The notes under the pieces: generated by a model
Told to the model about the DNA's origin: nothing
The model's database searches: none
The model's input: the letters and a program-made list of their open reading frames with translations, nothing else
Source: a virus
Virus record (IMG/VR): IMGVR_UViG_3300045988_158927
Coordinates: 25,629 to 89,628 of that record
Reading direction: 5' to 3' (one strand)
DNA length: 64,000 bases
Program-made: the position numbers and the translations under genes
In this document: piece after piece, positions 28,886 to 45,944 of the stretch
Layout: each line of letters starts with the position of its first letter
How positions within the stretch are numbered: the stretch's first letter is position 1

Positions 28886-28905
28886 CGCAAAAAAAGGAAC
28901 ATCCA

Positions 28906-31900
28906 ATGACAGTTATTGAGAAGCTGAAGCTGATCAAAAACCTGAAAGCTGCACAAGCCCTTCCCCGCGACACGATCCCTCAACGCCTCGCACGAATCAA
29001 GGCCATCAAGGCCGCGCTTGATGCGCTCAAAGGGGCAAAGGCTGAGGAACGTACCGCCGAGAAGGAATCCGTAGAAGCAGCGTTCAAGTTTGATGCAGAA
29101 CGCAAGACCGCCGAACGCAAGAAGGCCAATGATGCGGCCTATGCGCTGCTGCAAAGCCTCGATGAGGGCAAGACACTCACCGAAGAAGAAAAGGCCGTGC
29201 TGGCAGCGTATAGCGGTTGCGGCGGCGGTCTGATCAACCCGCTTACCGGAAAGACGGGCAGCGCGACGGAATACTACACGCCGAAGCCTATCGTCTCGGG
29301 CATGTGGGACATGCTGGGCGAATCGTTCGGGTTCAAAGGCGGTAAAGTGCTGGACCCGAGTAGCGGTACCGGCATTTTTGGGGCGACGGCGCCAAAGGGT
29401 GTCGTTATGCAAAGCGTGGAAATCAGCGAGGTTTCCGGCAAGATCAACAAGGCGCTTAACTCGAAAACCGGCAATAACGTTGCCATCGAGCCGTTCGAGG
29501 GCTTCGCAGCGCGCACGCCTGACGGCACGTTCGATGCTCTGGTAACTAACGTTCCGTTCGGTGATTCCGGTATCCGGACTGCCAAAGGAATGGACCAGAA
29601 ATATCAGGATCAAAGCCTGCAAGGCTACTTCCTGCTGCGCGGCCTCGATAAGCTGAAGCCGGGCGGCCTGATGGCCGTGATTCTGCCGGGTAGTGTCGTT
29701 GCCAATCGTGGGGCACGTGAAACCAAAGTGCGGACCATGATCAGCCTGAAGGCCGAATTTTGCGGCGCCATCCGCTTGCCTAACAGTGTCTTTGAGACAA
29801 CCGGCGCTGACGTGATTACGGACGTTGCCGTATTCAAGAAACACGGGACTGACGCGGCTGAAAAGATTGATGCTCTTTTCCGTGCGGGAAAATCCGATGA
29901 ACTGCGAGAAATGGGCGTTCTCTATGAGGAATTCATCGACGGCAATTGGTTCAAGGGCGAAGGACGCAAGTACCTGCACGGCGAGGAAGTGACCGTTAAC
30001 GGGCGCTGGGGCGAGACGCAGAAAGTCGTTTCAACCAAAAGCGTTACGGAAATCGGCCCCCTGCTGCGAGAGCTTCGCTTCAAATCGCGCATCAACTGGG
30101 ATGCTCTGGGGGCGGCTGATGTAAGCCTTGCCTATGACGTGGGCGACGAGATTACGGCACCAGATGGCACACTGATGCGCTGGGACGGTGAAACGTTCGT
30201 GGAGGTCCAGCGCGCCGAAGCGAAGGTCAACCCGTTTGCCAAGGTCATCGAGGCAATGGACCTGACCGCGCTTCAGTTCTACTACGCAGACTTCAGTGAC
30301 GATGAGGTGGCCGGCGCGCTGCAATACGTTGCAGACAATAACGTATCCGTCAAACCATGGGTCAATACGCTGAACCTTGGCAAGCGCATTGATGTTCTCG
30401 TTTGCGCGGCCGTCGAAGCGTTCGATGAGAAAGCCCCGACCGATAACCTTGGTGAAGAGCATCCGCGCCTGACCGAGGACGTGCAAGCTTCCATCAAGGC
30501 AGCACGCAACGTCACGCCGAAAGAGAGCGCGAAAGGCGTCTACAACCGATTCAAGGCGTTTACCGATAGTGGCGTTCTGTCGCCCGTTTGGTTCGGGCAG
30601 GTGGCCGAGCTGAAGACTATCGAGAGCAATGCAGCCAAATTCGAGGTCGCAAAAGGCAGTCAGAAATGGGTCGGCATCAATGAGATGCGCAAAGCCGGCA
30701 TTGACGTTGACGGTGAAGAATTCGTCCACAACGGCGACAAGGTTGCGCTGATGGATGAGGTCTGCACTGGCAAGGCCGCTGAAGTTATCGAGGCACTGAA
30801 GAACGCTGACGTACCGCCTGAGCGCAAAGCCCGTCAGATCGCGCTTGCGATGGAACGTATCGAGAAAATCGACGTTTCCAAGATGATCTTTACGCTTACG
30901 ACGAAGTACGTGTCAGCGGATGCTAAGGCGGAATTCCTGACCCTGTACGTGAGCAAATCGAACTATTCAGGCTTCCAAGCGCATGATGACATTGTTGTGC
31001 TGCCGGCGTCTGAGGTAAAGTATGTAGCGTTCGGGAACGTTGACAAACTGTTCGTGCGCGCACTTGTCGGCTACGTGAACGATGGTCGCGTGTCGTTCGG
31101 GAACCTGAAGATTGACGGCGTTTCTGATGATGAGCAAAAGCAGGCGAAGCGCGACCTTCTCGACGACTATCGTAAGTACCTGAACAAGCTTGATACGCAA
31201 TTCAACCTGTGGGTTCACTCGAATCGTGCGCTGAAAACCGCGCTGGATATCCGCCTGAATTCGGCTGAGAACGCCTTCTTCAAAACGCAAGCCAGCGACG
31301 GCCCGCTGACGATTCCCGGCCTGTCCGGTGATATCCAACTGCACGGCTATCAGCGCGCTTTCGTGCGCAAGATCGCAGCGCGATTCAATGGCATCAACTC
31401 GTTCGATGTGGGCCTCGGCAAGAGTTTCACGGCACTGGCCAGCGTGCAGTATGCGCAAGCCATCGGCGCGAAGAAAAAGACCGTTTTCGTCGTGCCAAAG
31501 TCCGTCATCACAAACTGGGTGAAGGAAGCCAACCGCCTGTTTTCCGCTGACGTTGCCAATGACATTCTGGTAGTCGGTGCCGTCGAGAAGAAAGGAAAGC
31601 TTGACGTTGATTCCAAGCGATTCGACGCAGATTTGCAGCGCATCGCGGATAACGTTCACTCGAAGATTTTCATGACGGCCGAAGCATTCCAGCGTATCCG
31701 CATCCGGGAAGAGGATGTTAAGGAATATCTGGACGCCATGCGCCTGAACGACCGCGATGCTTACGGGGACAAAATTTCTGACGCTGATAGCAATCGTGTA
31801 GAAAGCCGTCTGTATGCCATCGAGAAGATTCTCACGGAAGACGGCAAGAGCGAAGGCGCGCCGTTTTGGCATACGCTGGGCATTGATTCTGTCGTGTTCG

Positions 31901-34900
31901 ATGAGATGCACGTGAACAAGAATGCCGTGATTGCCATCGGTGTGCGCGGCGCCAAATTCCTGTCGCTGCCGCCTGCATCCAAGAAATCCGTGGACGTGAT
32001 GTGCAAGACTTGGCTGATCCGTCGTGACCATGGTTCCGGTGTGCTGGGCCTGACCGCTACGCCTATCACTAACTCGCCGCTGGAAATCTACGGGATGATG
32101 TCCATCGTGGAAGGCATGGACGCAGTGAATGATGCGTGCGGCGTCGCTGGACCGGGCGATTTCATCAAGGAATCTGTCATCGTCGAAAACCGTGCAGAAC
32201 TCGGCGTGGACGGCGAAGAGCGGATGATGGATGTTTTCGTCGGCTTGAAAAACACGCAGATTCTGGCGCGTCTCGTTCGTGGCGTGTGCGATATCAAGAC
32301 GGCCGCCGACGCCGGGAACATTGTCCAGCCTGACAGTGAAGAGGTGGTGCAAGGCGTGCCGCTGGATAACGACACGGACCGGCAATTGCGTCGGATGATC
32401 CTTGCCTACCAGATCATGCAGGGGGCGGTTGACGCAGGCCCGGAAATCCCCGAGCGCGTGGCAGAGGTTTATGGGTCCAAAGTCAAGACGCTGATGTCCC
32501 CGCTCAACCTTCTGTCGAATATGTCGAAACTGATGGTTGATGAGGACGCGGCCAAGAAACGCACGGTCTATATCGGTGGTTCCGAAGAGCTTACGGAGAA
32601 ATTCAACGGCCTGAAGATCAAGGAGAAACGCGCCTATGGCCCGCGCCTTGATGCAAGCGAGACGGTCAAAGTGACGGTCAATCCTGAAGACGAGGAAGAC
32701 GTTGAATTCATCGTCCAGATTGGGGCAGTCTTCGATGGTGGAAAGACGATCATCGATACAACGTCATGGGAGACTCAAGACAAATTCGAGGCACTTGCCG
32801 CGAAGCTTGACGTACCCTTGGACGTGAAGCCGTCGGAGAAATTCAAGGCCCTTATCGAGAACATGAAGGCCGAGGCTGCTAACGTGCGCGGCATCAAGAA
32901 TGGCGAGCGCATCGAGCATGCCAAGCAGATCGTCTTCTGCGACATGCTGGCAACCCATAACAAACTGAAGCGGTTCATTTGCTCACGTATGGGCATCCCC
33001 GCCTCGGAGGTCATCATCGTTACGGGTCAGCGTAACGGTTCGCCTGAAGAAATTCAGGACGTGCAAGACGGGTTCAATGACGGACGCTATCGCATCATCA
33101 TTGCCAACGAAAAGGCCGAGGTCGGCATCAACCTGCAAAAAGGCACGCAAGCTATCCATCACCTGACGATTGGATGGACTCCGGACAGTTTGCAGCAGCG
33201 TAACGGACGTGGCGTTCGGCAAGGTAACGAGACCGCGAAAGTGAACGTCTATTACTACGATGCCGAAGGTACTTTCGACCAGATGAAGCGGTCAATGGTC
33301 AACAAGAAGGCCGACTGGATCGAGAAGGTAATGACGGGCGAAGGCCGCACGGTGGCCGTGAATGCCGGCCTGACACGCGAGCAAATGGACGCGCTGATCG
33401 ATGGTATGGGCGACGCCGAGAGCATTGCCAAAGCGCAAGCCCAAGCGGAAGAGAAAGCCAAGAAGGAAGCGCGTAACCGTGCCGTCACTCAACAGATGAT
33501 CATGATTGAGGTTGCGCAAAAGAGCGAGGAAGAGCTGAAAAAGGCGGCCGATATGGCAAGCTGGGCCACGTCGATGATCAACAAGCTTATTACGCCGATC
33601 AATCAGCAACTGGAAGTCTCGCGCAAGCAATTGGCACTGTCTCGCAGTGATAAGACCAAGGAACGGCTTACGCAGACCATTGCCGAGCTTGAGAAGCGGC
33701 AGGGTGAAATCAGGACGCGCTATCGGAACTATTCTGATCCGTCCGTGCGTGAGGAATGGCAAAACGACATTGAGGCGCTGCAAGATAGCGTCAAGAGCGC
33801 CAATGAGCAGGTGGAGAACCTGTCTGGCGATGGCGGCCTGAATGAACGTGAAATCCAGCACGTCAAGGACGGAGAGTTCTTCAGGGTTGGCGATGAACTT
33901 GCTTTCCCGGGTCAGTTTGTCATGACCAAAAACGACGGTATCGGGGTTGTCGTGAAGAACATCAGGAAATCCCTTTGCCTCGCAACTCTTCGCAAGGATG
34001 ATAGCCGGCGTTCCGCTGCCTTGGATACCTCCCCGGTCGGCATGGAGCGACTGATCGATGAGGATAAGGTTCCTCACGACATTCTGAAAGAGTTTGCCAA
34101 GATCGATACGTATCAGGCGATGCAGGAAGAGGAAAGAACGTTCGAGACCGTTAAGGCGATCACGCAATACACGCAGGTTGTCGCCAAATGGAAGGGCGAC
34201 CTTGCTAACGTTCTGTGGAAAGAGGGCGTACCCGTTCTGATGATGGGTTCCTACGGTTATCCGCTGTTCGGGATTAGCCGTGATGCGCATCGGGATTCCG
34301 TCATCAATTACGATCCGTATAGCGTCGCCACGCTCAAAGATGATGGCACATGGACCGAGGTTGACATTGAAACGACGGCTGCTGCTGCCGCGCAATATCT
34401 GATCTCGATTGATGCTGTTATGAGCGATTTGATGGTGGTACGGAACGAGAAATTCCGGAAGCTTCTGTCCCAGAACATCGAGAACCATTACCTCAAAGAC
34501 CCGGCCATCGTTGAGCAGGCAATCGAACTGGCCAAGCAGGAATACTCGTCATACCGTTACGGTAGCTACGACATTCCAAAAGTGGCGCGGATGCTTTCAA
34601 TCCTTGGCCTTCGACGTGCGGCAAAACTGCACTACAACCTCTATTCGGCAGAGGATTTCCCGGGCGTGGAATCGATGCAGGGTCAGATGGAAGTGTTCGT
34701 CAAACAGGCCCGCGAAGAGGAGGAGCGCGTTAATCAGGAATGGGAGGAGAAGAAACGGCGAGAGCGCGAAGAGGCGGAAGCCAAGGCAGCACAAGATGCG
34801 GCGAACATGGAGAAATGGGTGTCCGAGGGCTTCCCGGCTGATCAGGAATTCGGCATCACTGGATTCCGCACGTTCGGCTTTAAGGATCGGATCAAGCAGG

Positions 34901-35046
34901 CTGAACAAGAGGCAGGCGGTAAAGCCCGCTGGCACGGTGACAGCAAGCAATGGATCATTCACGGGAAGGCGCTGGACAAACTGTTCAAGGATGAATCGTT
35001 TGCCGATGCCGTCAAGGAAAAAGAGCTGATCATCAAGCCCGTCTGA
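28906..35046 (+). CDS. 2046-aa polyvalent protein: N6-adenine-type DNA methyltransferase + SNF2-family helicase + long C-terminal region (DarB-like architecture)
   Basis: MTase motifs: YYTPKPIV, VLDPSSGTGIFG (motif I, nt 29347-29379) and VTNVPFG (motif IV, nt 29548-29559). SNF2 motifs: LHGYQ, DVGLGKS (31405-31425), DEMH (31900-31911), LGLTATPITNSPLEIY, GINLQ and QQRNGRGVRQGN (from nt 33193). The last ~600 aa are unassigned and include coiled coils. Confidence 0.9.
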   Translation: MTVIEKLKLIKNLKAAQALPRDTIPQRLARIKAIKAALDALKGAKAEERTAEKESVEAAFKFDAERKTAERKKANDAAYALLQSLDEGKTLTEEEKAVLAAYSGCGGGLINPLTGKTGSATEYYTPKPIVSGMWDMLGESFGFKGGKVLDPSSGTGIFGATAPKGVVMQSVEISEVSGKINKALNSKTGNNVAIEPFEGFAARTPDGTFDALVTNVPFGDSGIRTAKGMDQKYQDQSLQGYFLLRGLDKLKPGGLMAVILPGSVVANRGARETKVRTMISLKAEFCGAIRLPNSVFETTGADVITDVAVFKKHGTDAAEKIDALFRAGKSDELREMGVLYEEFIDGNWFKGEGRKYLHGEEVTVNGRWGETQKVVSTKSVTEIGPLLRELRFKSRINWDALGAADVSLAYDVGDEITAPDGTLMRWDGETFVEVQRAEAKVNPFAKVIEAMDLTALQFYYADFSDDEVAGALQYVADNNVSVKPWVNTLNLGKRIDVLVCAAVEAFDEKAPTDNLGEEHPRLTEDVQASIKAARNVTPKESAKGVYNRFKAFTDSGVLSPVWFGQVAELKTIESNAAKFEVAKGSQKWVGINEMRKAGIDVDGEEFVHNGDKVALMDEVCTGKAAEVIEALKNADVPPERKARQIALAMERIEKIDVSKMIFTLTTKYVSADAKAEFLTLYVSKSNYSGFQAHDDIVVLPASEVKYVAFGNVDKLFVRALVGYVNDGRVSFGNLKIDGVSDDEQKQAKRDLLDDYRKYLNKLDTQFNLWVHSNRALKTALDIRLNSAENAFFKTQASDGPLTIPGLSGDIQLHGYQRAFVRKIAARFNGINSFDVGLGKSFTALASVQYAQAIGAKKKTVFVVPKSVITNWVKEANRLFSADVANDILVVGAVEKKGKLDVDSKRFDADLQRIADNVHSKIFMTAEAFQRIRIREEDVKEYLDAMRLNDRDAYGDKISDADSNRVESRLYAIEKILTEDGKSEGAPFWHTLGIDSVVFDEMHVNKNAVIAIGVRGAKFLSLPPASKKSVDVMCKTWLIRRDHGSGVLGLTATPITNSPLEIYGMMSIVEGMDAVNDACGVAGPGDFIKESVIVENRAELGVDGEERMMDVFVGLKNTQILARLVRGVCDIKTAADAGNIVQPDSEEVVQGVPLDNDTDRQLRRMILAYQIMQGAVDAGPEIPERVAEVYGSKVKTLMSPLNLLSNMSKLMVDEDAAKKRTVYIGGSEELTEKFNGLKIKEKRAYGPRLDASETVKVTVNPEDEEDVEFIVQIGAVFDGGKTIIDTTSWETQDKFEALAAKLDVPLDVKPSEKFKALIENMKAEAANVRGIKNGERIEHAKQIVFCDMLATHNKLKRFICSRMGIPASEVIIVTGQRNGSPEEIQDVQDGFNDGRYRIIIANEKAEVGINLQKGTQAIHHLTIGWTPDSLQQRNGRGVRQGNETAKVNVYYYDAEGTFDQMKRSMVNKKADWIEKVMTGEGRTVAVNAGLTREQMDALIDGMGDAESIAKAQAQAEEKAKKEARNRAVTQQMIMIEVAQKSEEELKKAADMASWATSMINKLITPINQQLEVSRKQLALSRSDKTKERLTQTIAELEKRQGEIRTRYRNYSDPSVREEWQNDIEALQDSVKSANEQVENLSGDGGLNEREIQHVKDGEFFRVGDELAFPGQFVMTKNDGIGVVVKNIRKSLCLATLRKDDSRRSAALDTSPVGMERLIDEDKVPHDILKEFAKIDTYQAMQEEERTFETVKAITQYTQVVAKWKGDLANVLWKEGVPVLMMGSYGYPLFGISRDAHRDSVINYDPYSVATLKDDGTWTEVDIETTAAAAAQYLISIDAVMSDLMVVRNEKFRKLLSQNIENHYLKDPAIVEQAIELAKQEYSSYRYGSYDIPKVARMLSILGLRRAAKLHYNLYSAEDFPGVESMQGQMEVFVKQAREEEERVNQEWEEKKRREREEAEAKAAQDAANMEKWVSEGFPADQEFGITGFRTFGFKDRIKQAEQEAGGKARWHGDSKQWIIHGKALDKLFKDESFADAVKEKELIIKPV

Positions 35047-35057
35047 TTGACGTAACG

Positions 35058-35090
35058 AGGGGGCGCCGATATGATGAAGCGTCCCCTTTG
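35058..35090 (+). terminator. weak terminator candidate
   Basis: A 9-bp stem (35058-35066 with 35079-35087, one G-U pair) and a 12-nt loop, followed only by TTT. Confidence 0.35.
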
Positions 35091-35104
35091 CGGAGATTGA
35101 AACC

Positions 35105-35473
35105 ATGGATATCGAAGAGATCAAAGAGAACTTTGCGTACACCGAAGACGTTGCGAAGGGCTGGCGTGATTACTACCAGATGGACGACGCAGACACCGAG
35201 CGCGTGGCCAAAGTGATTGCAGGCCGCATCAGCGACAAGAAGACGGATTACCGTAACTACGGCCCTTGGTGGTGGCCCGTCAAGCGTGCATTGATCGCGC
35301 AAGGGCTGGCGGCGGGATACGTGGATGAGGAAGTAGCCGATGCTCTGTCGTTCGGGAATGGACTGGACGACATGCTTTGCGGCGACGCCTACAGAACGTC
35401 GTTCCTCGGGTCCAGCATCGCGGAGACGAAACAGCACGGCCAATACGTCATCCATGATCCGGACATGGAATAG
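35105..35473 (+). CDS. hypothetical protein
   Basis: Track ORF. No motif recognised. Confidence 0.55.
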   Translation: MDIEEIKENFAYTEDVAKGWRDYYQMDDADTERVAKVIAGRISDKKTDYRNYGPWWWPVKRALIAQGLAAGYVDEEVADALSFGNGLDDMLCGDAYRTSFLGSSIAETKQHGQYVIHDPDME

Positions 35474-36383: not shown

Positions 36384-37196
36384 ATGGCAATTACTGTCTC
36401 TCACTCGGCCGTCAAAGAAAAGCGCGACGTGCCGAAACGCGAACGCCTCGGCAGCCAATGGGACGGCCTGAATACAAACCTGCTGGCGACGTTCTTTGAA
36501 GTCGAGAAGGTGGGCAGCGAGTACAAGCGCAAAGAGGGCCTGTATGTAGTTGCGCCGCTCACGGATGCGAGCTGCGAACTCACCCAAAACTGGACATCGC
36601 CCTTTGAGCAATCCGGCGTAGACCAAAGCGCCCCCTACCTGACCGCCATGCTTCAGACTGGCGGGCTTTCGCAAGTGGTGGACGCGGTGGGATCGGCCCT
36701 TGGATTCGAGGGAGACGGCGGGATGGCGAACGAGGCGCTCAAGCAGGCGCAAGGCCGGTCAAGCGTGACGAAGCTTAACAGCACGCAAATTTTCAGCGGG
36801 ATGCCACCGGTCAAATTCAGCGTAACGGCCCTTTTCCGGGCGTGGTCGAATGCCCGGGATGAGGTCGAGCGCCCCATGGAAAAACTCGTGGAATGGTCCC
36901 TGCCGAAGGCCATCGTCAACGAAGGAACCCTGATCGAACGGGGGGTTCAAATCCAGAAAGGCAGCGCCGATTGGTGGTCGGCCATCATGCCCAGCAAGGC
37001 CCCTTGTCTGGTAGGAATGACGTACAAGGGGCGCACTTGGATGCCCATGGTCATCGAATCAATCAGCATCCCGATTGCGTCCAACGTGACGGGTTCCGGG
37101 GAGTTTGTAGAGCTGGCAATCCCGATGACGCTGGCCACGCTGACGGCTATTGACGCGAAAGACTGGACGGCTACGAGCGTCAATCATGGCCGATAG
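36384..37196 (+). CDS. hypothetical late protein, terminator-insulated monocistron (tail-tube-like guess)
   Basis: Track ORF 36297-37196 trimmed to ATG 36384 with RBS GAGGAAG. It is flanked by strong terminators on both sides, like the capsid and sheath genes. Its beta-rich pattern is weakly reminiscent of tube proteins, so the function is uncertain. Confidence 0.55.
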   Translation: MAITVSHSAVKEKRDVPKRERLGSQWDGLNTNLLATFFEVEKVGSEYKRKEGLYVVAPLTDASCELTQNWTSPFEQSGVDQSAPYLTAMLQTGGLSQVVDAVGSALGFEGDGGMANEALKQAQGRSSVTKLNSTQIFSGMPPVKFSVTALFRAWSNARDEVERPMEKLVEWSLPKAIVNEGTLIERGVQIQKGSADWWSAIMPSKAPCLVGMTYKGRTWMPMVIESISIPIASNVTGSGEFVELAIPMTLATLTAIDAKDWTATSVNHGR

Positions 37197-37219
37197 ACTG
37201 CACAAAACATAGGCAATTC

Positions 37220-37244
37220 AGCCCGCCGAGTGCGGGCTTTTTTG
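37220..37244 (+). terminator. rho-independent terminator
   Basis: AGCCCGC (37220-37226) pairs with GCGGGCT (37232-37238), followed by TTTTTG. Confidence 0.75.
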
Positions 37245-37318
37245 TGCCCGTCGCCGGCATCATCCGCAACGATTGGCGACGATTGGCTATGAGTGGGCAA
37301 TCACGATAAGCAATGTTA

Positions 37319-37340
37319 GAAAATTGGCGGTAATTTTTCC
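37319..37340 (+). repeat. 21-mer repeat copy 1 (GAAAATTGGCGGTAATTTTTCC)
   Basis: Read directly from the sequence. The core AATTGGCGGTAA is shared by all five copies. Confidence 0.9.
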
Positions 37341-37360
37341 TACCCCCCTCCCCCGGGGTG
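37333..37360 (+). repeat. left inverted arm with C6TC5G4 tract
   Basis: AATTTTTCCTACCCCCCTCCCCCGGGGTG. Its reverse complement reappears, split in two, at 37914-37935 and 37955-37973. Confidence 0.8.
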
Positions 37361-37376
37361 CATTTAACAGGTGTAA

Positions 37377-37397
37377 CAATTGGCGGTAAATTTTCAG
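37377..37397 (+). repeat. 21-mer repeat copy 2 (CAATTGGCGGTAAATTTTCAG)
   Basis: Read directly from the sequence. Confidence 0.9.
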
Positions 37398-37401
37398 TCG
37401 T

Positions 37402-37443
37402 GAGTTCAACATGAGTTCAACGTATACTCAATATGAGTTCAAC
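37402..37443 (+). repeat. three direct GAGTTCAAC repeats
   Basis: Copies at 37402-37410, 37413-37421 and 37435-37443, with a degenerate fourth copy (GTTAGTTCATC) at 37444-37454. Confidence 0.85.
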
Positions 37444-37480
37444 GTTAGTTCATCGTTGCGTAACATGTCCAAAAGAACAA

Positions 37481-37501
37481 GAAAATTGGCGGTAAATTTC
37501 C
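37481..37501 (+). repeat. 21-mer repeat copy 3 (GAAAATTGGCGGTAAATTTCC)
   Basis: Read directly from the sequence. Confidence 0.9.
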
Positions 37502-37559
37502 GCTCAACGTGGTAAATGAGAACGATTCTCGTGTGTCTCACAAGATTTAAATAATTCTT

Positions 37560-37581
37560 GAAAAATTACCGCCAATTTTTC
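37560..37581 (-). repeat. 21-mer repeat copy 4, inverted (GAAAAATTACCGCCAATTTTTC on + strand)
   Basis: Shares 22 identical nt (TGAAAAATTACCGCCAATTTTT) with copy 5. Confidence 0.9.
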
Positions 37582-37649
37582 TCTCATGTTTGGGAACGTT
37601 CGTTATACGATTAAGCCGAAAAACGGGGGTTTTTCTCATCTTTCGCAAC

Positions 37650-37658
37650 GTTGAACTC
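37650..37658 (-). repeat. inverted copy of GAGTTCAAC (GTTGAACTC)
   Basis: Read directly. It sits 7 nt upstream of inverted 21-mer copy 5, mirroring the left side of the island. Confidence 0.7.
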
Positions 37659-37664
37659 TTTCCT

Positions 37665-37685
37665 GAAAAATTACCGCCAATTTTT
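37665..37685 (-). repeat. 21-mer repeat copy 5, inverted
   Basis: GAAAAATTACCGCCAATTTTT on the + strand. Confidence 0.9.
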
Positions 37686-37860
37686 ACATATGTTAAATCG
37701 AATTGTTAAACGAGTGTTTATGCGGTTCTTCAGGCGTCGGACACAAAATTTAACGTTGTTAAAAAGTATTTTCCGAATTTCTATTTTTTTCTGTCGTGAG
37801 GGTCAGATATGAAAAAAGGTTTTTTTGAATAGACCCCTATATATATAAGGGGGAGAAATT
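37680..37860. other. strongly AT-rich block with CCCCT(AT)4AAGGGG palindrome (37834-37852)
   Basis: Contains runs such as TTTTTACATATGTTAAATCGAATTGTTAAA and CTATTTTTTTCTG. No ORF. It contrasts with the GC-rich flanks. Confidence 0.7.
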
Positions 37861-37913
37861 AGGGAAATTGCCCCGAGCCCCCCCCCGGAAGCGCGCACGG
37901 ATGGGGCGTCTCT

Positions 37914-37973
37914 CACCCCGGGGGGAGGGGGGGGGAATATTGCCGGCGAATTACGGAGGGGGTAGGAAAAATT
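37914..37973 (-). repeat. right inverted arm (C4G6AG9 tract ... GGAGGGGGTAGGAAAAATT)
   Basis: Reverse complement of 37333-37360, interrupted by AATATTGCCGGCGAATTAC and with G-run length differences. Confidence 0.75.
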
Positions 37974-38021
37974 CGGGGAAATTAGAGCAGGAATTTCCGG
38001 GCCGTGCGATGGCCTCGGGGA

Positions 38022-38074
38022 GGTCTGCCAGAGGAACGGGCGATGGGGCGGAAGCCCCTACTCTGGAAGAGACC
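38022..38074 (+). other. three-tier hairpin with GGAA tetraloop in GC-rich leader
   Basis: GGTCT pairs with AGACC (38022-26 with 38070-74), CCAGAG with CTCTGG (38028-33 with 38061-66), and GGGGC-GGAA-GCCCC forms the tip (38045-38058). Confidence 0.4.
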
Positions 38075-38150
38075 GCCGACGCATCGATGCCGGACCTGCT
38101 GGCGCGTGTCTGTCCACGTCATCCGTCTGTAGCTTGTGAGGCACGTTGGG

Positions 38151-38179
38151 TTGACGGCAGGCCGGGTACTAGAGAGAAT
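38151..38179 (+). promoter_or_regulatory. sigma70-like promoter (TTGACG-17 nt-GAGAAT)
   Basis: -35 at 38151-38156 and -10 at 38174-38179, about 35 nt upstream of ATG 38215. Confidence 0.5.
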
Positions 38180-38214
38180 GCAGCCATCCCACACACAAGC
38201 CGATGAGGCCAACC

Positions 38215-38658
38215 ATGAACAAGCCGTCCCTTTCCTACCTGCCCGCCTGTATGTCTTTCCGGACCCTTCGCGCCAAGAGCGACGCCTACCTGATCGGATT
38301 CCTTGGGGGCTTCGATGACGTGGACGCCATCCGTGCGGCGCTGGCGAAGTTTCGCGGCGCTTCCTATGTCCATCAGAACGACCTTCTGAGCGTGGCCGTT
38401 AGCGGGGCATCTACATTTGTGCGTCATAGCCGGCCGGACGATGCCAAGCGCTTGAATGCCCTTGCTGCCCGTCGGCGGGCCATTGTGGTCGAGATGATCG
38501 GGCAATACGTTGAGTGCTGGTGCCATCAAGTAGGCCCGGCTTACGTCACGAAAGAGGCGCGGGACTATCTGATCGGTTGCGCTGATGGTGGATGGTCGCT
38601 GCAACCCGTCCCAGTAGCCGTCCGTCTCTTCCCCGCATCGCCTGCCGATTTTGCTTGA
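38215..38658 (+). CDS. array-B protein (~150-aa paralog family), first member
   Basis: ATG 38215 lies 6 nt after GAGG. AYLIGFLGGFDDVDAIRAALAKF aligns with AFFAGYSGYQFDPWEMNALRAALQEE of 39423. C-terminal motif YLIGCADGGW. Confidence 0.55.
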   Translation: MNKPSLSYLPACMSFRTLRAKSDAYLIGFLGGFDDVDAIRAALAKFRGASYVHQNDLLSVAVSGASTFVRHSRPDDAKRLNALAARRRAIVVEMIGQYVECWCHQVGPAYVTKEARDYLIGCADGGWSLQPVPVAVRLFPASPADFA

Positions 38659-38683
38659 CACGCGGAACGGCAAGCTCCATACT
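38655..38683 (+). promoter_or_regulatory. sigma70-like promoter (GCTTGACACGC ... CATACT)
   Basis: -35 TTGACA at 38655-38660, a 17-nt spacer, and -10 CATACT at 38678-38683. Confidence 0.55.
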
Positions 38684-38716
38684 TCCAAACATCCCACTCA
38701 CCACAAAGAGAACATC

Positions 38717-39049
38717 ATGCGCTTCATTCTCACTTGGACCAAGAACAACCGGATGCGTTACGTCGTGGCGCATCGCATGGACGTTAAAGCGGATGTCGAG
38801 CTGATCCGCAAGATCGAAGAAGAGGAGCCGGATATCTGGCCGCTGCGCACGGCATCCGTTCATGAGGTCATCGAGAAGCTTATGCCCGAGCGCGCCAACT
38901 GGCTTTTGCGTGACCTTGACATGGTGTGCGAAGAAGGCGAGATGAACGGCCTGTCCCAAGAGCTGCGCACGCTGATTACCGGCCTGTCGGATATCGATAA
39001 CAAGGAATCGATGAAGAAGGTTTCCGCATATCTCGCCTCGATCCAATGA
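38717..39049 (+). CDS. hypothetical protein
   Basis: Track ORF 38651-39049 trimmed to ATG 38717 (MRFILTW), downstream of the promoter. Confidence 0.55.
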   Translation: MRFILTWTKNNRMRYVVAHRMDVKADVELIRKIEEEEPDIWPLRTASVHEVIEKLMPERANWLLRDLDMVCEEGEMNGLSQELRTLITGLSDIDNKESMKKVSAYLASIQ

Positions 39050-39423
39050 CGCCGATAACCATGGCCATCGTTAGGAACGCACACCCCGCGTTCCTTTACG
39101 CCTACGCCAGCCCACAAAATCCGGCCCATGGCTTCGTTGATTCGCCTAGCCTAGGCGATGACACTACAGTGACGCCGAAGGCCGTAGCGGGCTTTCTGGG
39201 GGCTTCTACGGCCGACACGCAAATTCAGGAACTCGACGGATGCACGCTTGATGCCATCGCCGCATCACTCGCTGCCGAGTATCGCAAGGAATACGGAAAA
39301 CTTTCATCAGCCGTCGCGGAATCGATCTATCAGGCATTCCGAGGGATTGTCTGGGGCGGCTGGCCCATTCTCAATGCACGGCACGTCATCGCTGCTGCCG
39401 TGCGCTTTGCAAAGGAGCAATAA
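39046..39423 (+). CDS. array-B protein (divergent member)
   Basis: VAGFLGASTADTQIQEL and the C-terminal GIVWGGWPILNARHVIAAAVRFA fit the family motifs. ATGA overlap. Confidence 0.55.
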   Translation: MTPITMAIVRNAHPAFLYAYASPQNPAHGFVDSPSLGDDTTVTPKAVAGFLGASTADTQIQELDGCTLDAIAASLAAEYRKEYGKLSSAVAESIYQAFRGIVWGGWPILNARHVIAAAVRFAKEQ

Positions 39424-39884
39424 TGACACCGAAACCGCTGATTCCGATGGGAATCGAAGCTTTCAAACTCGAAGAATCTGCCAATGACGATCACTATGCG
39501 GCTTTCTTTGCCGGGTATTCAGGCTATCAGTTTGATCCGTGGGAAATGAATGCGTTGAGGGCAGCACTTCAGGAAGAAGGCCGTGATGAATACCCCGGCC
39601 CTAACAGCATCTATAACCGATTCTTAAAGGGCGCATGGAAGCAGTCCTACAAGCATCAGGATTTCCACTGGGACGAAGAATGCGAAGAGAATCTAGTGAT
39701 GCTGGACCTTCTGGAGGTGGCCGCCGATAAGCTGGATCGAGACAAGGTAAGCGAAGAAAAGCGCAAGCTGATGGAAGCCTATCTGTCCGGATGGGCATGC
39801 GCTGGCAATTTCCTCGAATCCCCCATCTTCGCCTACTTCAAAGCCGAAGAGTACGTTAAGTCTGTTTTTGGTATCGAGAAATGA
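39423..39884 (+). CDS. array-B protein
   Basis: FFAGYSGYQFDPWEMNALRAAL ... EAYLSGWACAGNFLESPIFAYFKAEEYV. Confidence 0.6.
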   Translation: MTPKPLIPMGIEAFKLEESANDDHYAAFFAGYSGYQFDPWEMNALRAALQEEGRDEYPGPNSIYNRFLKGAWKQSYKHQDFHWDEECEENLVMLDLLEVAADKLDRDKVSEEKRKLMEAYLSGWACAGNFLESPIFAYFKAEEYVKSVFGIEK

Positions 39885-40411
39885 TCAAACACTCACGCTC
39901 AATCACGGCCGGCTACATTGTCCGTGCCTACAAATCGAACGGTCTTGGCACGCATCATGATTGTGTACACACGCTGTCCGGTTACTCTGGCCGTGTCATT
40001 CGGCCGGAACAATTGCGAGAGCTTGCAATCCGTGCTGCCATGCTGCCGGGAAATCGCCTGCTGACGCCCGACGATATCTTGCTGATGATGAAGGCCATTG
40101 ACGTGGGGTTGCTGGATGGCTGGCAGCATAGCATTCTGAAAAAGCCGAATCAGTCCAGATTTGCACGCGCTGGACGTGATGATGCGCATATCCTGCTGGT
40201 GCAATCGCTGTACGATATCGCGCACGAAAGAGCGGCCGAGATATGGGGGCGGTTTAAAAAGCACACCAAATACGCTTTCCCGGTCGGCGCGTGGCTTTCC
40301 GGCTGGCGTATGCGCGGCGATGATTCACTGAGCCCGGCCATCGCGGCCGTGGATGCCATCACGTATGCACGCGGCTTCATTGACTATCTGAATCTGAAGG
40401 TGAAGGAATGA
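39881..40411 (+). CDS. array-B protein
   Basis: HTLSGYSGRVIRPEQLRELA ... GAWLSGWRMRGDDSLSPAIAAVDAITYARGFIDYL. Confidence 0.6.
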   Translation: MIKHSRSITAGYIVRAYKSNGLGTHHDCVHTLSGYSGRVIRPEQLRELAIRAAMLPGNRLLTPDDILLMMKAIDVGLLDGWQHSILKKPNQSRFARAGRDDAHILLVQSLYDIAHERAAEIWGRFKKHTKYAFPVGAWLSGWRMRGDDSLSPAIAAVDAITYARGFIDYLNLKVKE

Positions 40412-40908
40412 CGGAAAAATGCTTGTCGCTGATTACTGTCGGCGCATTCCGAAAGATCGCAAGGTCGGGAAACATTGAAAGGATCGAGGAGCTTTCCCGC
40501 CAATTGACCGGGTTCATCCACACTTACCCCATCCATATCACGCCGCGACAAATCATCTGGATGGATGAGAAAATGAAGGTATGGCCCAGCAACAAGCGGT
40601 TATCTATCGATGACGTGATTCAGTTCATCGAAGGGGCGCGGCTCTATACGCCTAAGAATGTCTTTTACCGTTCCGGGTGTGAGGAATCCTATGCAATCCG
40701 GATGATGTCGAATCTCTACGATGCGGCGAGAGACTACGTGTACTAGAAATGCAAGGATACTGAATTGACAACCTATGCGCTGGACTATCTGTACGGATGG
40801 GAATGGTCCGGGCAGATTGACCGGACGCCTATGGCCATGGCAAAGGATGCTATCGGCTATGCAAAGTGGGTCAGAAAGCAAATGAAAGAAAGAGGGTTCT
40901 GCCGATGA
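40408..40908 (+). pseudogene. array-B paralog interrupted by an in-frame TAG (40744-40746)
   Basis: Track ORF 40408-40746 ends ...NLYDAARDYVY-TAG. The same frame continues KCKDTELTTYALDYLYGWEWSGQIDRTPMAMAKDAIGYAKWVRKQM to TGA 40906-40908. This continuation aligns with the C-terminal motif of 39881-40411. Confidence 0.5.
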
Positions 40909-41369
40909 AGTGCAAGTATTACGCCATTTCTGGCAAGGAAATTCTGAAGAAAATCGAGTATTGGCATGGCGTGGCGTACCTTAGCGGGTATTCTGGGGGA
41001 ACGATATCCCCATGGAAGCATGCCGAATATTTGCGCAAGAATCTCGCAGACTTCGCGCCAACCAAGAAATTTTCCCCGCGCTATGTCCATCTTCTCGCCG
41101 GCGACTTCATGCTGCTGGAAAGGCTGAAACGTTGCGAATCGATCCGCAACGGCCGCGACAAGATGCACGTCAAAACCGTAGATTCGATGCGCTGGCTCTA
41201 TGAATCGTTCGTGAACGAGGAATACGCACGCAGCCCGTACCATCGCGAGGCGCTGGAATACGTGCGCGGAATGGCTGATGCCGGCATCGTCATGGACCCG
41301 TTCCTCGTGATGGAGAAGGTGGGCGGCTATCTGGCAGAGATTAAGACTTTCAAGCAAGGGCCGAAATGA
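40905..41369 (+). CDS. array-B protein
   Basis: Track ORF 40866-41369 trimmed to ATG 40905. AYLSGYSGGTISPWKHAEYLRK ... ALEYVRGMADAGIVMDP. Confidence 0.6.
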   Translation: MKCKYYAISGKEILKKIEYWHGVAYLSGYSGGTISPWKHAEYLRKNLADFAPTKKFSPRYVHLLAGDFMLLERLKRCESIRNGRDKMHVKTVDSMRWLYESFVNEEYARSPYHREALEYVRGMADAGIVMDPFLVMEKVGGYLAEIKTFKQGPK

Positions 41370-41818
41370 TCATCTTCCACACCCCAGTCAAAAGCATGCC
41401 GATTCCCGGGGTATCGCTGAGAATGCTAGACCTTTCGTTCCTGTCTGGATATCTCGGTTTCGACGTGACAGACAAGCAGGAAAAGGCTTTGGCCAAGGGG
41501 CTTGGCTATCGTCGATGGGTTGATGCGCTCGATCTTGCTAACGCTCTTGGCGAGGGTATCAGCTACATCGACGAAACGAACATCAAGCCATTTAGCGTCG
41601 ATGAACGGTACAAAAAGCAAGAGCTGATCCTATCGGCGCTCTATGAGATTGTGGATAAAACCAAGCAGGATCACACAGTATCGGTGGTTCAGGAAATGCT
41701 TGCCGAAAGATGGATCGAAGGCGCGGTAATGGGGGCGTCTCTGATCGTGGACTTCACGCCAGAGGAACTGGCAAATGAGGCCGTCAAGCATGCACGTCGC
41801 AGGCGCCCCGAGAAGTAG
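41366..41818 (+). CDS. array-B protein
   Basis: SFLSGYLGFDVTDKQEKALAK ... RWIEGAVMGASLIVDFTPEELANEAV. Confidence 0.6.
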   Translation: MIIFHTPVKSMPIPGVSLRMLDLSFLSGYLGFDVTDKQEKALAKGLGYRRWVDALDLANALGEGISYIDETNIKPFSVDERYKKQELILSALYEIVDKTKQDHTVSVVQEMLAERWIEGAVMGASLIVDFTPEELANEAVKHARRRRPEK

Positions 41819-41834
41819 CGCGCAAGCAACACGC

Positions 41835-41863
41835 TTGACACGCAGTGAGGACGGACCTATACT
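41835..41863 (+). promoter_or_regulatory. sigma70-like promoter (GCTTGACACGC ... TATACT)
   Basis: -35 TTGACA at 41835-41840, a 17-nt spacer, and -10 TATACT at 41858-41863. Confidence 0.65.
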
Positions 41864-41872
41864 GTCCTCACT
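41844..41872 (+). promoter_or_regulatory. 9-bp inverted repeat embracing the -10 element (operator candidate)
   Basis: AGTGAGGAC (41844-41852) and GTCCTCACT (41864-41872). The 11-nt spacer contains TATACT. Confidence 0.5.
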
Positions 41873-41890
41873 TTCCAACGAGGCATCACT

Positions 41891-42331
41891 ATGCGTCCCA
41901 CTGTCCAAAAACCCTTGTATACGAACGCTTCCCTTCTCTACGTGATGAGCCGTGCCGAACTGGCCGGCTACGCCACGCAATCCATGACGCCGGCTCAATA
42001 TGATGCGGCACGCCAAAAACTCGCGTCCATGCCCGCCATGCAAATGGTTTCGCCCGACGCAGCGTGTGCGCTTGTTCTTGGCGGCAATCCGTTCGCTGGA
42101 TGGTTCGCTGCCGACGACCGTGAAGACGCGGTTGTGATGCGTCGGCGCGATCTCTACAAAGAGATCATCATGACTGAATCGAAGTGGCTGCGAGAGCGTG
42201 CAGATAGCGTCTATCTGGAAACGTTCGATGACGTGACGAACGGATACGTTCAAGGCTATATGCCGACATTGGACCCGCTGCGAGCGGTGGCGCTGATTGA
42301 CCAAATCACACGCGACATTCTTTCCAACTAA
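41891..42331 (+). CDS. array-B protein (divergent member)
   Basis: AELAGYATQSMTPAQYDAARQKL ... NGYVQGYMPTLDPLRAVALIDQI. Confidence 0.6.
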   Translation: MRPTVQKPLYTNASLLYVMSRAELAGYATQSMTPAQYDAARQKLASMPAMQMVSPDAACALVLGGNPFAGWFAADDREDAVVMRRRDLYKEIIMTESKWLRERADSVYLETFDDVTNGYVQGYMPTLDPLRAVALIDQITRDILSN

Positions 42332-42342
42332 TGAGGTGAAAC

Positions 42343-43065
42343 GTGGGTTTTGATACTGAAATTATCAAATCGATCAAGTTTGATGATCCTTCAATGGAAC
42401 TTGATTATGACGATTACGATATCTTGCTGCGGCAACTGGAAGAACTCTTCTCGACCGGAAAAGGCGAGTACCCCATTCCGGGCGTGAAAATCAAATGGAA
42501 GAAGTACGCAATTCCTGTGCCTGTCATGCTTGGCATGGTTAATGTTGAGCTTGCGAGAGAGTTTAGCGTTGTCGTGCTAGGCAAGGATTCCTATCTGCAA
42601 GATGGTCGGAAACTCGCAGATTCTAATGATCACAAAAGTAAGGTATATCGGAAGATCACGGATAACTACGGGTTGTTCATCAATGTTGCTGCCACTGAAC
42701 ATTGCGTCTTTGACGGCATCAATCAAATCCTGCTGATGGACCCGGCTGGCACTAACACTGCCTCGATTCCTAAAGAGCTGATCCATTTCCCACAAAATGA
42801 CCCGGTGTACATTGCCCGCGAGCTGGAATCACTGTCGTTTGGCAAGCATCTTGTGGCGTGCATTCCGGACCTGAACGATTTGCAGGTCAGCTACCTGTCT
42901 TCGGCATTCGAGGCGACGCATTCGGTGGGGCGCGTCATTCACAAGAAGATGGACATTAATCTGACCGTTTTCATATCGCAAAAACTGGAATGGAATACAG
43001 AAGTGGCTGTCTTTCGCTCCATCCAAAGCATTGTCGGTGTTCCTGCTACGAGAGGTCCGAATTGA
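42343..43065 (+). CDS. hypothetical protein
   Basis: Track ORF with a GTG start. The region is AT-richer than its surroundings. Confidence 0.55.
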   Translation: MGFDTEIIKSIKFDDPSMELDYDDYDILLRQLEELFSTGKGEYPIPGVKIKWKKYAIPVPVMLGMVNVELAREFSVVVLGKDSYLQDGRKLADSNDHKSKVYRKITDNYGLFINVAATEHCVFDGINQILLMDPAGTNTASIPKELIHFPQNDPVYIARELESLSFGKHLVACIPDLNDLQVSYLSSAFEATHSVGRVIHKKMDINLTVFISQKLEWNTEVAVFRSIQSIVGVPATRGPN

Positions 43066-43094
43066 ACTATCGGTTCAAGAAATGGCAAAAGAAG

Positions 43095-43373
43095 ATGATT
43101 TGCAGTCTCTACGGAGATCGAATCATCTTCGATCAGAACGACGAGATGCGCGATATCAAGGGCCGGTCCATCGAGTACCCGGACGCCTGCGAGCAATTCG
43201 GCATCTTTGAGGTTCGGACGACAGAACAAATGGGCGACCTTAAGCTAGTCGATAAGGTCATTTTCAAGTGCATGGACTATTGCGACGCTATGTCGTTCGC
43301 AAAAGCAGCGAGAGGCAAGCGAGAACTTGCCGTGATGAATCACTATTCTGGCGAGATCGTGGAGTACGTATGA
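43095..43373 (+). CDS. hypothetical protein
   Basis: Track ORF 42990-43373 trimmed to ATG 43095. A TTG at 43062 overlapping the upstream stop is an alternative start. Confidence 0.45.
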   Translation: MICSLYGDRIIFDQNDEMRDIKGRSIEYPDACEQFGIFEVRTTEQMGDLKLVDKVIFKCMDYCDAMSFAKAARGKRELAVMNHYSGEIVEYV

Positions 43374-44137
43374 ACCTGACCGAACTGAAACTGAATCGCA
43401 ACGAGTTTGACGTTTACGTGCGGGCCGACATTGTTCAGGCCATCGCAGACGGCAAGTATATTGCTGACCCGTCAAACGAGCATAAGGAATGGATCGATAG
43501 CATGAAGGGACTGCCGTTCATTCATGTCATGGAATCGATGGCCGATCTTGTCGAGGATCATATGCGCGAAACCTACGGTACGCCGCCTTTCATGGCATCG
43601 GTGGACTATAACGAGGACTTAGCGGCGATTTTTGACGATTACGAGAAGGCAATCCGTGCGCTGAAACGCTTCGATATGCCGATCGTGTACAAAGGGCATA
43701 TACCGAAAGATGCAAAGAGCGATAGTCTTTGCATCGGTGTCGTTAATGGCTTGCCACGTTGGTTCCTGTATCATGGCAAAATCCATTCCAAGAAGCTTGC
43801 TATTGCCTGCCAATACGTATGGCCTGATGCTTCTGATAAAAGCTTTTTGGATTTCCTTATCGTCACTGAAGGTGGCAACTGGCGTGATTTGAACGATATC
43901 GTCAATGGCGGCATGCTTGGCGTTGTTCTCAAAAACACCAAGAAAAACCTAACTGCCGCTGCAATGGCCGGACTGCGATATGAGACCGTCAAGTCTGCTA
44001 GAGATGGGGCCAGTTATATCATCGTCACGGCCGTTCCTCGGCATCACGACTATGACATGATCCTTGACCGTGCAATGAGCATTGTTGGCGGTCTGTATAT
44101 CCCTTGTGAATCCAACGAAGATGAGGACGAAGAATGA
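43370..44137 (+). CDS. hypothetical protein
   Basis: Track ORF 43268-44137 trimmed to ATG 43370, with an ATGA overlap. Confidence 0.6.
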   Translation: MNLTELKLNRNEFDVYVRADIVQAIADGKYIADPSNEHKEWIDSMKGLPFIHVMESMADLVEDHMRETYGTPPFMASVDYNEDLAAIFDDYEKAIRALKRFDMPIVYKGHIPKDAKSDSLCIGVVNGLPRWFLYHGKIHSKKLAIACQYVWPDASDKSFLDFLIVTEGGNWRDLNDIVNGGMLGVVLKNTKKNLTAAAMAGLRYETVKSARDGASYIIVTAVPRHHDYDMILDRAMSIVGGLYIPCESNEDEDEE

Positions 44138-44634
44138 AATTCATCCACCTGAAAGACCTGATTGACACCGAAAACGACAATTTCTTTTTGGTCGAGCACA
44201 CTATCGACAAACTCGACGGGTACATTCCGTACACCATCGGTACGGACCTCATGAAACAAATGATCCTTTACCGTCGTCTCGACTATCGAATGAACCCGGC
44301 GGAACTGACCATGTGCATCATGGCCGCAAAGGATGCCGGGATGAGGCGTTTTGATTGGGACAGCATCATGCAGAACTATGACGGATATCAGGCATTCCGC
44401 AACTATTCATCCGTCAGTTACGCGATTGACGGTATCCGTCGGCAGGAATGCGTTGTGGCCGTTTACCGTGGCGAAATGCGCGATTGGCAGCTAGAGGAAG
44501 TCCGCAAGAAAGAAGGAGAAATTCGGATGCTCTGTTTGCAGAATCAATACGATGAATTCATTACCCTTTTTGGGTATCAGCCGCTTTTCCTAGAGGCAAT
44601 TCAGAAATTCGACCACGATCAATCTTTCCTGTGA
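44134..44634 (+). CDS. hypothetical protein
   Basis: Track ORF with an ATGA overlap. Confidence 0.6.
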   Translation: MKFIHLKDLIDTENDNFFLVEHTIDKLDGYIPYTIGTDLMKQMILYRRLDYRMNPAELTMCIMAAKDAGMRRFDWDSIMQNYDGYQAFRNYSSVSYAIDGIRRQECVVAVYRGEMRDWQLEEVRKKEGEIRMLCLQNQYDEFITLFGYQPLFLEAIQKFDHDQSFL

Positions 44635-44641
44635 GGCAATC

Positions 44642-45451: not shown

Positions 45452-45465
45452 AAGGTGGGTGAAAA

Positions 45466-45903: not shown

Positions 45904-45914
45904 GGTTTACAATC

Positions 45915-45943
45915 AAGGCCCACTAACGGGCCTTTTCTTTTTC
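45915..45943 (+). terminator. rho-independent terminator
   Basis: AAGGCCC (45915-45921) pairs with GGGCCTT (45928-45934), followed by TTCTTTTTC. Confidence 0.65.
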
Positions 45944-45944
45944 T

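Follow-up and report, generated by a model that had tools for sequence, protein, structure and literature searches.

A duplicated module of phased, oriented sites in an uncultured phage lineage: a candidate iteron-type replication origin with matching specificity types

The replication origin (ori) of phage lambda comprises a phased array of sites, an AT-rich region and a palindrome, and the N-terminal part of the O protein sets site specificity while the rest of the protein is conserved. The oriV of plasmid RK2 follows the order iterons, AT-rich region, GC-rich region, and distant second iteron arrays are found in P1 (incA), P4 (crr) and R6K (distant origins); host-factor boxes, for DnaA and integration host factor (IHF), are common in iteron origins, but not universal. 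In lambdoid immunity, cI acts with OL and OR, which share one specificity per genome, and related phages that differ in this specificity also differ in the N-terminal domain of the protein that binds there. In Bacillus phage SPP1, gp38 binds two similarly designed origins, one of which lies in an intergenic late-region segment beside moron genes (PMC6316719); the second origin-like region, also bound by the origin-binding protein, is thought to stall forks and to trigger concatemer synthesis (PMC6316719). In the PLE satellites of Vibrio cholerae, RepA variants have been exchanged with their cognate origins, the DNA-binding domain of the initiator and the iterons changing together (PMC8263062). 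Here, we describe a gap of about 1 kb (positions 37197–38214) in a 64,000-nucleotide stretch of viral DNA (positions 25,629 to 89,628 of IMG/VR record IMGVR_UViG_3300045988_158927; hereafter the window). The gap holds one of two copies of a 625-bp module whose binding-site type changes in step with one domain of an AT-hook protein. To judge from its sequence, the module may be an iteron-type replication origin that is present twice in the genome, a reading that we favour with about even confidence. Window coordinates are used throughout; for the DNA upstream of the window (contig L142), the window position is the L142 position minus 7769.

Each copy of the module carries five asymmetric, oriented sites of 18–20 bp, three forward (F1–F3) and two reverse (R1 and R2), and each site has a 12-nt invariant core. 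Exact copies of the core AATTGGCGGTAA are found on the + strand at 37322, 37378 and 37484 and on the − strand at 37566 and 37671, with none elsewhere in the 64 kb; when up to one mismatch is allowed there are six matches against 0.34 expected, a number reached in none of 100 shuffles. The 21-nt motif that a first-pass annotation of this DNA had noticed in both orientations is thereby confirmed in five copies, far above chance. The sole extra near match to the core in the window, AATTGGCGGGAA (40494–40505, minus strand, one mismatch), lies within a coding region, lacks the A/T flanks and is probably due to chance. Two types of site, I and II, are distinguished among related genomes, as set out below. 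The window copy (copy B) is of type I and consists of the following features.

37320–37944, + strand: module copy B, a 625-bp unit homologous to copy A
37319–37339, + strand: site F1 (GAAAATTGGCGGTAATTTTTC), its core invariant in 12 type-I modules; AAATTGATCATCTTTT in type-II genomes
37342–37358, no strand assigned: C-rich tract 3' of F1, highly variable among genomes
37375–37396, + strand: site F2 (AACAATTGGCGGTAAATTTTCA); type-II counterpart AAATTAATCATCTTTTT
37400–37465, + strand: tandem array of six 11-bp units, consensus RTGAGTTCAAC, kept in both site types, with AGTTCAACATGAGTT invariant
37481–37501, + strand: site F3 (GAAAATTGGCGGTAAATTTCC); type-II counterpart AAATTAGTCATCTTTTT
37526–37556, no strand assigned: nearly invariant central block between the forward and reverse sites (TTCTCGTGTGTCTCACAAGATTTAAATAATT)
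37559–37580, − strand: site R1 (on the + strand, TGAAAAATTACCGCCAATTTTT); type-II counterpart AAAWNGATGACTAATTTTT
37608–37631, no strand assigned: invariant CGATTAAG ... AAACGGGGGTT, including a small hairpin and a T-rich tail
37644–37658, − strand: the end of the 11-mer array repeated in inverse orientation (CGCAACGTTGAACTC; inverted repeats I1, I16 and I19)
37664–37685, − strand: site R2, with 22 nt identical to R1
37686–37860, no strand assigned: AT-rich block, a candidate DNA-unwinding element, containing invariant GAATTTCTATTTTT (37775–37788)
37834–37853, no strand assigned: palindrome CCCCTATATATATAAGGGG, CCCCT(AT)4AAGGGG (I17), with CCCCTATATA invariant in all modules
37862–37944, no strand assigned: G/C-rich tract (C9, G-runs; inverted repeats I2 and I6) forming the module end, where homology between the copies stops
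37935–37951, no strand assigned: degenerate inverted site AATATTGCCGGCGAATT, extending slightly beyond the end of the homology

The sites are under strong purifying selection: in 12 type-I modules, none of the 60 site-core columns is variable, against 298 of 601 scaffold columns (p = 3e-17). Their spacing is 55–57 or 65–68 bp for F1–F2, 106 bp for F2–F3, 82 bp for F3–R1 and 104–105 bp for R1–R2; the exceptions are indels of 10–12 bp or 56 bp, about whole helical turns, so that helical phase is maintained. Related genomes, in which the primase-helicase is 87–89% identical, keep the module scaffold with its 11-mers, CGTGTGTCTCACAA/ATTTAAATAATT block, CGATTAAG, AAACGGGGGTT, GAATTTCTATTTTT and CCCCTATATA. 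The core is AATTGGCGGTAA in type I and AATTRRTCATC, i.e. AAATT(A/G)(A/G)TCATCTTTT, at all five sites in type II. The switch is concerted, with all sites of both copies (ten sites at two loci) changing type on one conserved scaffold, and the two copies within a genome are of the same type in the five genomes in which both could be typed (I/I in four, II/II in one). One contig end (L172 12380–12420) carries a copy-B module with type-II F1–F3 followed, past the invariant block, by a type-I-like R1 sequence; this mosaic arose either through chimeric assembly of a sample containing both types or through natural recombination at the invariant block.

The remaining parts of the module are also distinctive. 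The GAGTTCAAC repeats, previously described as three direct copies and one inverted, are indeed present (direct at 37402, 37413 and 37435, inverted at 37650; five occurrences in the window against 0.52 expected), and the direct copies belong to the six-unit tandem array. In a type-II module (L175 3084–3300), 56 bp corresponding to five 11-mer units are absent, which reduces the F2–F3 spacing from 106 to 50 bp with the flanking sites intact; the full array is therefore dispensable or variable in length. Within the central block, CGTGTGTCTCACAA and ATTTAAATAATT are invariant in both types and both copies, and matches to this block, when used as a search probe, are confined to this phage group. 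Copy A gives a weak terminator-like match at the position equivalent to 37608–37631, and a weak leftward promoter-like sequence, TTAACA-18-AAAAAT (37709 to 37680), overlaps R2 in both copies. GC content is 33–39% over 37400–37850, compared with ~55% in the flanks. Duplex stability in 50-bp windows reaches its minimum for the entire 64 kb in the AT-rich block (33–36% GC), at 37741–37870, with values of −55.5 to −57 kcal/mol where the mean is −72.2 (standard deviation 4.4). In copy A, the least stable part is the segment homologous to this block. The drop in GC content and the palindrome bear out the AT-rich block as first described. Long-range pairing between the C tract after F1 and the G tract was considered and rejected: 16 of 16 positions pair in the window, yet the mean complementarity score is 17.3 within genomes and 18.0 between them, so the tracts do not covary.

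The gap had been described as lacking a credible open reading frame (ORF), and this holds: the only long one, 37868–38206 (112 aa), is of low complexity and is broken by single-base indels in relatives. An RNA gene was also rejected, as Rfam covariance-model matches were all under the gathering thresholds, no tRNA or tmRNA was found and the central hairpin GAGAAnnnTTCTC is lost in alternative alleles.

The first-pass annotation had seen no second full copy of the motif, which is true within the window but not in the genome. A full second module (copy A) lies in direct orientation 43.3 kb upstream (L142 1830–2480; window −5939 to −5289). The two copies of the window genome are 73% identical over 662 nt (blastn), with homology that begins exactly at F1 and fades past GGAATATTGCC (window 37320–37944), and copy A has all five sites in the same order and orientation as copy B. 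The motif occurs in these two places only; the alternative outcome that had been envisaged, its recurrence genome-wide upstream of genes, was not seen. Each ~89-kb genome contains two direct-repeat modules, separated by 43.3 and about 46 kb, and both positions are conserved in every relative examined. The copies within a genome are 94–99.5% identical in other genomes, which indicates gene conversion; the window genome (69–73%) is an informative exception, in which the copies have diverged and the sites are identical. Copy A is situated in a 1.1-kb divergent region between a 297-aa minus-strand gene and an operon encoding an AEP-primase/DUF3987 helicase (850 aa), a second helicase and a PriCT_2 protein. 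It is flanked by divergent promoters, TTGACA-18-TACYAT for the 297-aa (AT-hook) gene and TTGACT... for the primase operon, and downstream of each copy come a conserved GC-rich leader of its own and a sigma-70-like promoter.

The two-copy module accounts for the breakage of this phage into 42–46-kb halves during assembly. Many contigs end in the gap (at ~37338–37555 and 37883 from the left, and at ~37320–37362 and 37764–37857 from the right), and the same assemblies also break ~43 kb upstream, at copy A, giving half-genome contigs of 42–46 kb; the breaks fall at both copies because the module is a two-copy repeat. A 131,227-bp contig (ENA ERZ28633989 scaffold_104; L004 and L007 in our set) crosses copy B and circles the whole genome with a period of 89,037 bp, and hence the breaks are repeat-induced and are not physical ends. 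This contig spans ~1.46 genome lengths, and contains the PmgG-like gene twice, 89,037 bp apart, which would fit a genome that is circular or concatemeric and circularly permuted.

The protein that adjoins copy A provides the candidate recognition factor. This 297-aa protein has two AT-hook cores, NRRGRPKK and KRKRGRPAK, invariant in 23 homologues, which show the R-G-R-P core with basic flanks of the AT-hook family (PF02178); its Pfam AT_hook score of 15.5 bits is below the cut-off of 17.4. It belongs to no PHROG family and shows no other recognizable family, no helix-turn-helix (HTH) and no S24 repressor features, and comparison with the PDB gave no significant match by sequence (E values of at least 0.49) or by fold (Foldseek, E values of at least 0.048). 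The N-domain of ~90 residues exists in two allelic forms that are ~35% identical, the remainder of the protein being ~90% identical between forms, and the N-domain type equals the site type in 11 of 11 genomes. Fixed differences between the types cluster at the start of the AT-hook gene, whose first 300 nt hold 43 and 19 of them per 150 nt; the rest of the ~10.5 kb to its left has 0–10 per 150-nt window. The copy-A scaffold of the window genome resembles type II (68–72%) more than type I (65–67%), yet its site cores are type I at 35 of 35 positions, like the protein of that genome. We consider it likely that the module is an array of specific binding sites for the AT-hook protein. Sequence-specific AT-hook proteins are, to our knowledge, rare in bacteria and phages.

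This is an orphan family, with one distant homologue among 1.84 billion representatives. The gene for this homologue lies on an integrase-bearing chromosomal element and is divergent from a full-length homologous primase-helicase gene, with a 1.25-kb non-coding gap between them. The homologue (P0025; L168 6009–12116, on a 771-kb metagenomic scaffold) is without clear AT-hooks, its gene is divergent from a 117-aa gene, the DUF3987 primase-helicase gene and an AlpA-like gene, and the 1.25-kb gap contains direct repeats spaced ~400–470 bp rather than the module.

No support emerged for the binders put forward at first pass, namely the XRE protein, TerS and the primase. The last is a primase-helicase without a type-specific segment: its residues 425–575 appeared type-linked in four genomes, but the type-II genome L158 has the 'type-I' variant. 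An exact-protein look-up with the XRE protein, meant to probe type independence, matched the window genome only. The HTH proteins of the leftward operon were set aside because they show no or almost no fixed type differences.

If the module is an origin, the AT-hook protein would be its origin-recognition protein, with the variable N-domain reading the asymmetric core and the AT-hooks holding the A/T flanks. Bound along one helical face, several protomers would bend the DNA, or wrap it, and melt the AT-rich block next to the sites, at which the neighbouring primase-helicase would be recruited and loaded; two complexes facing opposite ways could form on the convergent forward and reverse arrays that surround the invariant centre. 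Copy A would be the origin beside the replication genes. Copy B, between a terminator and the separate sigma-70-like promoter at 38151 that would drive an orphan-gene array, may be a second origin or else a subsidiary region to which the protein binds to block forks or to provide a pairing partner, as in SPP1 oriR. Known origins of this kind have three or more repeated sites of 17–22 bp beside an AT-rich, easily melted region; each module has five sites and such a region. Copy A abuts the primase-helicase, helicase and PriCT_2 genes. Being asymmetric and oriented, the sites look more like iterons than like operators for a dimer. The first-pass proposal of a candidate origin or control hub, made up of iterons beside an AT-rich unwinding block, is supported by the purifying selection, the co-switching with the AT-hook N-domain, the phasing and the position of the least stable duplex.

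Several observations weigh against an origin. The module alignment contains no conserved DnaA (TTWTNCACA) or IHF (WATCARNNNNTTR) boxes, and the AT-hook protein has no recognizable initiator fold, its AlphaFold model having a predicted local distance difference test score (pLDDT) of 60 and no match in the PDB. Copy B is distant from the replication genes, and both copies are 200–250 bp upstream of rightward promoters heading long gene arrays, an arrangement that suits transcriptional control equally well. GC skew does not show an origin-type switch at the module; this is uninformative, since nearly all genes are on one strand and gene orientation dominates the skew. Finally, the N-domain is encoded ~170 bp from copy A, so the association of protein and site types could in part reflect linkage. 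Linkage alone does not explain the match, because copy B is 43 kb away and because the copy-A scaffold and sites are decoupled in the window genome, an argument that rests on the five genomes with both copies typed.

Transcriptional control is accordingly the alternative that deserves most attention, and it is a possible one, which we hold with some reserve. On this view, the modules would be operator arrays through which the AT-hook protein, as repressor or activator, governs two long rightward operons (replication; the orphan array and structural genes) together with its own leftward operon, and the site and protein types would represent immunity-like specificity groups, like OL/OR in heteroimmune lambdoid phages. 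Both copies head gene arrays, copy B after a terminator and before a conserved promoter and copy A between divergent promoters; the gene for the regulator lies alongside in divergent orientation, as is typical of autoregulation; F2 and R2 are overlapped by promoter-like hexamers, albeit weak ones (9 of 12 matches); and the gene for the distant homologue adjoins an integrase gene and diverges from a replication operon, much as master repressor genes do in satellites. However, the one good sigma-70-like promoter lies 470–830 bp downstream of the sites, none of which overlaps it, and a whole 625-bp architecture kept twice (11-mers, invariant blocks, AT-rich block, palindrome and G/C end) exceeds the needs of an operator. 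The sites are oriented and iteron-like rather than being dimer operators, the protein has none of the HTH or S24 features of repressors, and no integrase or lysogeny genes were seen in a phage whose element is absent from 185,579 species genomes. A role in partition or genome organization, with the sites acting as centromere-like or pairing (handcuffing) elements in a plasmid-like prophage state, seems improbable to us. Arrays such as these, with phased repeats in both orientations and 11-bp tandem units, are reminiscent of parC-type centromeres; structural relatives of the phage head genes occur on 80–95-kb plasmids and the specificity types recall incompatibility groups. Yet no ParA, ParM or TubZ-type NTPase was detected among those genes that were scanned or had precomputed Pfam hits (part of the genome's complement), the element is in no isolate or species-representative genome searched, centromeres need no unwinding block and there is no evidence for a plasmid state.

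The structure of the module and the behaviour of contigs at it bear on two further explanations. A non-autonomous mobile element or recombination substrate, inserted twice as a 625-bp unit with inverted-repeat ends (F1 and the C tract; the G tract and the degenerate site), would fit the imperfect terminal inverted repeats (I2 and I10), the two copies per genome and the sharp left boundary of homology. We regard it as very unlikely, given that both positions are fixed in every relative examined, that there are neither target-site duplications nor copies elsewhere in the public collections searched, that the terminal complementarity shows no covariation and that the internal sites covary with the resident protein. 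The packaging site or physical genome end (pac or cos) suggested at first pass, to which the many contigs terminating inside the gap might point, is highly unlikely: equal breakage at copy A is explained by the two-copy repeat, contigs are circularly permuted, the 131-kb contig runs through the module with its period of 89,037 bp and the module is 13 kb from the terminase genes (23.7–26 kb), near which such sites are usually found.

Returning to the candidate origin, a close counterpart in overall design is SPP1 oriL/oriR. In both phages, two distant regions with repeats and an AT-rich unwinding element are bound by one phage protein (a prediction in the present case), one region being at the replication genes and the other in a late-region intergenic segment bracketed by transcription signals near moron genes. 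The placement of copy B between terminator and promoter, in the structural region and beside accessory genes, parallels that of SPP1 oriR. The proteins are unrelated, however, SPP1 oriL is inside gene 38, no specificity types have been described for SPP1 and the SPP1 DnaB-type helicase and loader contrast with the AEP-primase/DUF3987 helicase found here. Lambda ori and O, with the lambdoid ori classes, share the order of elements and an N-terminal specificity domain on a conserved remainder, but lambda ori is inside gene O and single-copy, with internally symmetric iterons that are all direct, whereas the sites here are asymmetric, three forward and two reverse, in two modules. The PLE satellites show the same coupled exchange of protein domain and sites, yielding replicon types in one element family; there the protein is of the RepA_N family and the single origin has three ~30-bp iterons, whereas here ten sites at two loci switch on an intact scaffold. 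The module also resembles RK2 oriV in its order and P1 incC/incA, P4 ori/crr and R6K in having a distant second array, and mixed site orientations are found there too. It differs from iteron plasmids in lacking DnaA boxes, in having no Rep_3, TrfA or P4-alpha-type protein and in that the second array is a duplicate of the whole module 43 kb away. As with cI, OL and OR of lambdoid phages, two regions share one specificity that differs among relatives alongside an N-terminal domain; lambdoid operators, however, overlap promoters, are pseudo-palindromic and lie 2–3 kb apart, while the present sites are far upstream and embedded in a large conserved architecture.

Around copy B, the gap contains the following flanking features.

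37220–37245, + strand: intrinsic terminator (7-bp stem with 6 G-C pairs, then TTTTTTG) closing the upstream head/anti-restriction operon, which ends with the PmgG-like gene 36384–37196
37945–38150, + strand: copy-B-specific GC-rich leader, 80–95% conserved between genomes and 41% identical to the copy-A leader
38151–38179, + strand: predicted sigma-70-like promoter TTGACG-17-GAGAAT for the downstream orphan-gene array
38215–38658, + strand: first gene of the orphan accessory array (147 aa), with a GAGG ribosome-binding site at 38206–38209, called in more than 20 contigs

The terminator is kept in all copy-B loci. The GC-rich leader and the promoter at 38151, both anticipated at first pass, were found; the promoter hexamers are conserved in relatives with a variable spacer, which differs in L005 and L006. 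The copy-B leader has AAATT-(GC core)-AATT motifs that are independent of site type. Such extra motifs, with GC-rich cores of 6–7 nt, are present in both leaders (window 37950–38005; L142 2520–2595), with GAAATTCGGCGCGAATTATT occurring twice in that of copy A; they look like type-I sites, yet are unchanged in type-II genomes. The protein encoded by 38215–38658 has no Pfam or PHROG family match, and the ~8 kb directly downstream of the module (38215–46568) contain ~15 small orphan genes without a Pfam or PHROG family, whose content and lengths differ between near-identical genomes, as in accessory or moron-like regions.

The flanking genes are P1-like, with head and anti-restriction functions. 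The Dar cluster at 26011–35473 encodes DarA_N/InPase proteins, a 2046-aa DarB-like protein (N6-methylase and SNF2-like helicase) and an Ulx-like protein, and is followed by PHROG 1053 and the PmgG-like gene. The rightward operon that starts from copy A includes genes for dUTPase/dCTP-deaminase-like, ThyX and RecT-family proteins (5793–6461, 8880–9662 and 22039–23088). The second helicase (L142 5329–7563; window −2440 to −206) has a Hint/intein-like insertion (Hom_end_hint) and is 744 aa long in the window genome and L144; in L146, L158, L165 and L166 it is 612 aa long and ~400 bp are absent.

By exact-protein look-up, the window matches an 89,692-bp metagenomic contig, with full identity in the stretches that were compared, and many close relatives of 88–90 kb come from human-associated samples, the full-length contigs being permuted at arbitrary points. 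Searches of phage and plasmid collections gave a single 38-nt match for the gap DNA (3% of the query) and none for the primase-helicase; neither the site pattern nor the invariant block was found in any of the 185,579 species genomes, and a 14-mer scan of viral contigs gave chance single matches only. Xanthomonas phage Rb1, which has the head and Dar genes in common with this phage, was discarded as an informative relative: its early region is lambda-like (CI, serine recombinase) and therefore uninformative on the module.

The combination of phased iterons, an unwinding element and a cognate specificity protein, with replicon types, is of a known kind. New here are the protein family and the predicted use of AT-hooks in a sequence-specific phage DNA-binding protein, the duplication of a whole module at near-opposite genome positions and a clean natural specificity swap on a common scaffold. 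We tentatively suggest that this ~89-kb lineage of uncultured, human-associated phages may have two equivalent, nearly opposite origins licensed by an undescribed initiator family with a swappable N-domain and two AT-hooks, and that the direct modules, together with RecT, might let the genome pair or split into two half-genome replicons.

For a lineage that has no cultured relative and whose early genes are mostly orphans, the module and the AT-hook protein supply a cis element and a candidate trans factor, and with them an entry to its replication or control. The natural swap of ten sites and one protein domain on a shared scaffold is a ready system for studying the co-evolution of DNA-binding specificity and its targets, and it bears on the question of whether phages form replicon or incompatibility groups as plasmids and satellites do.

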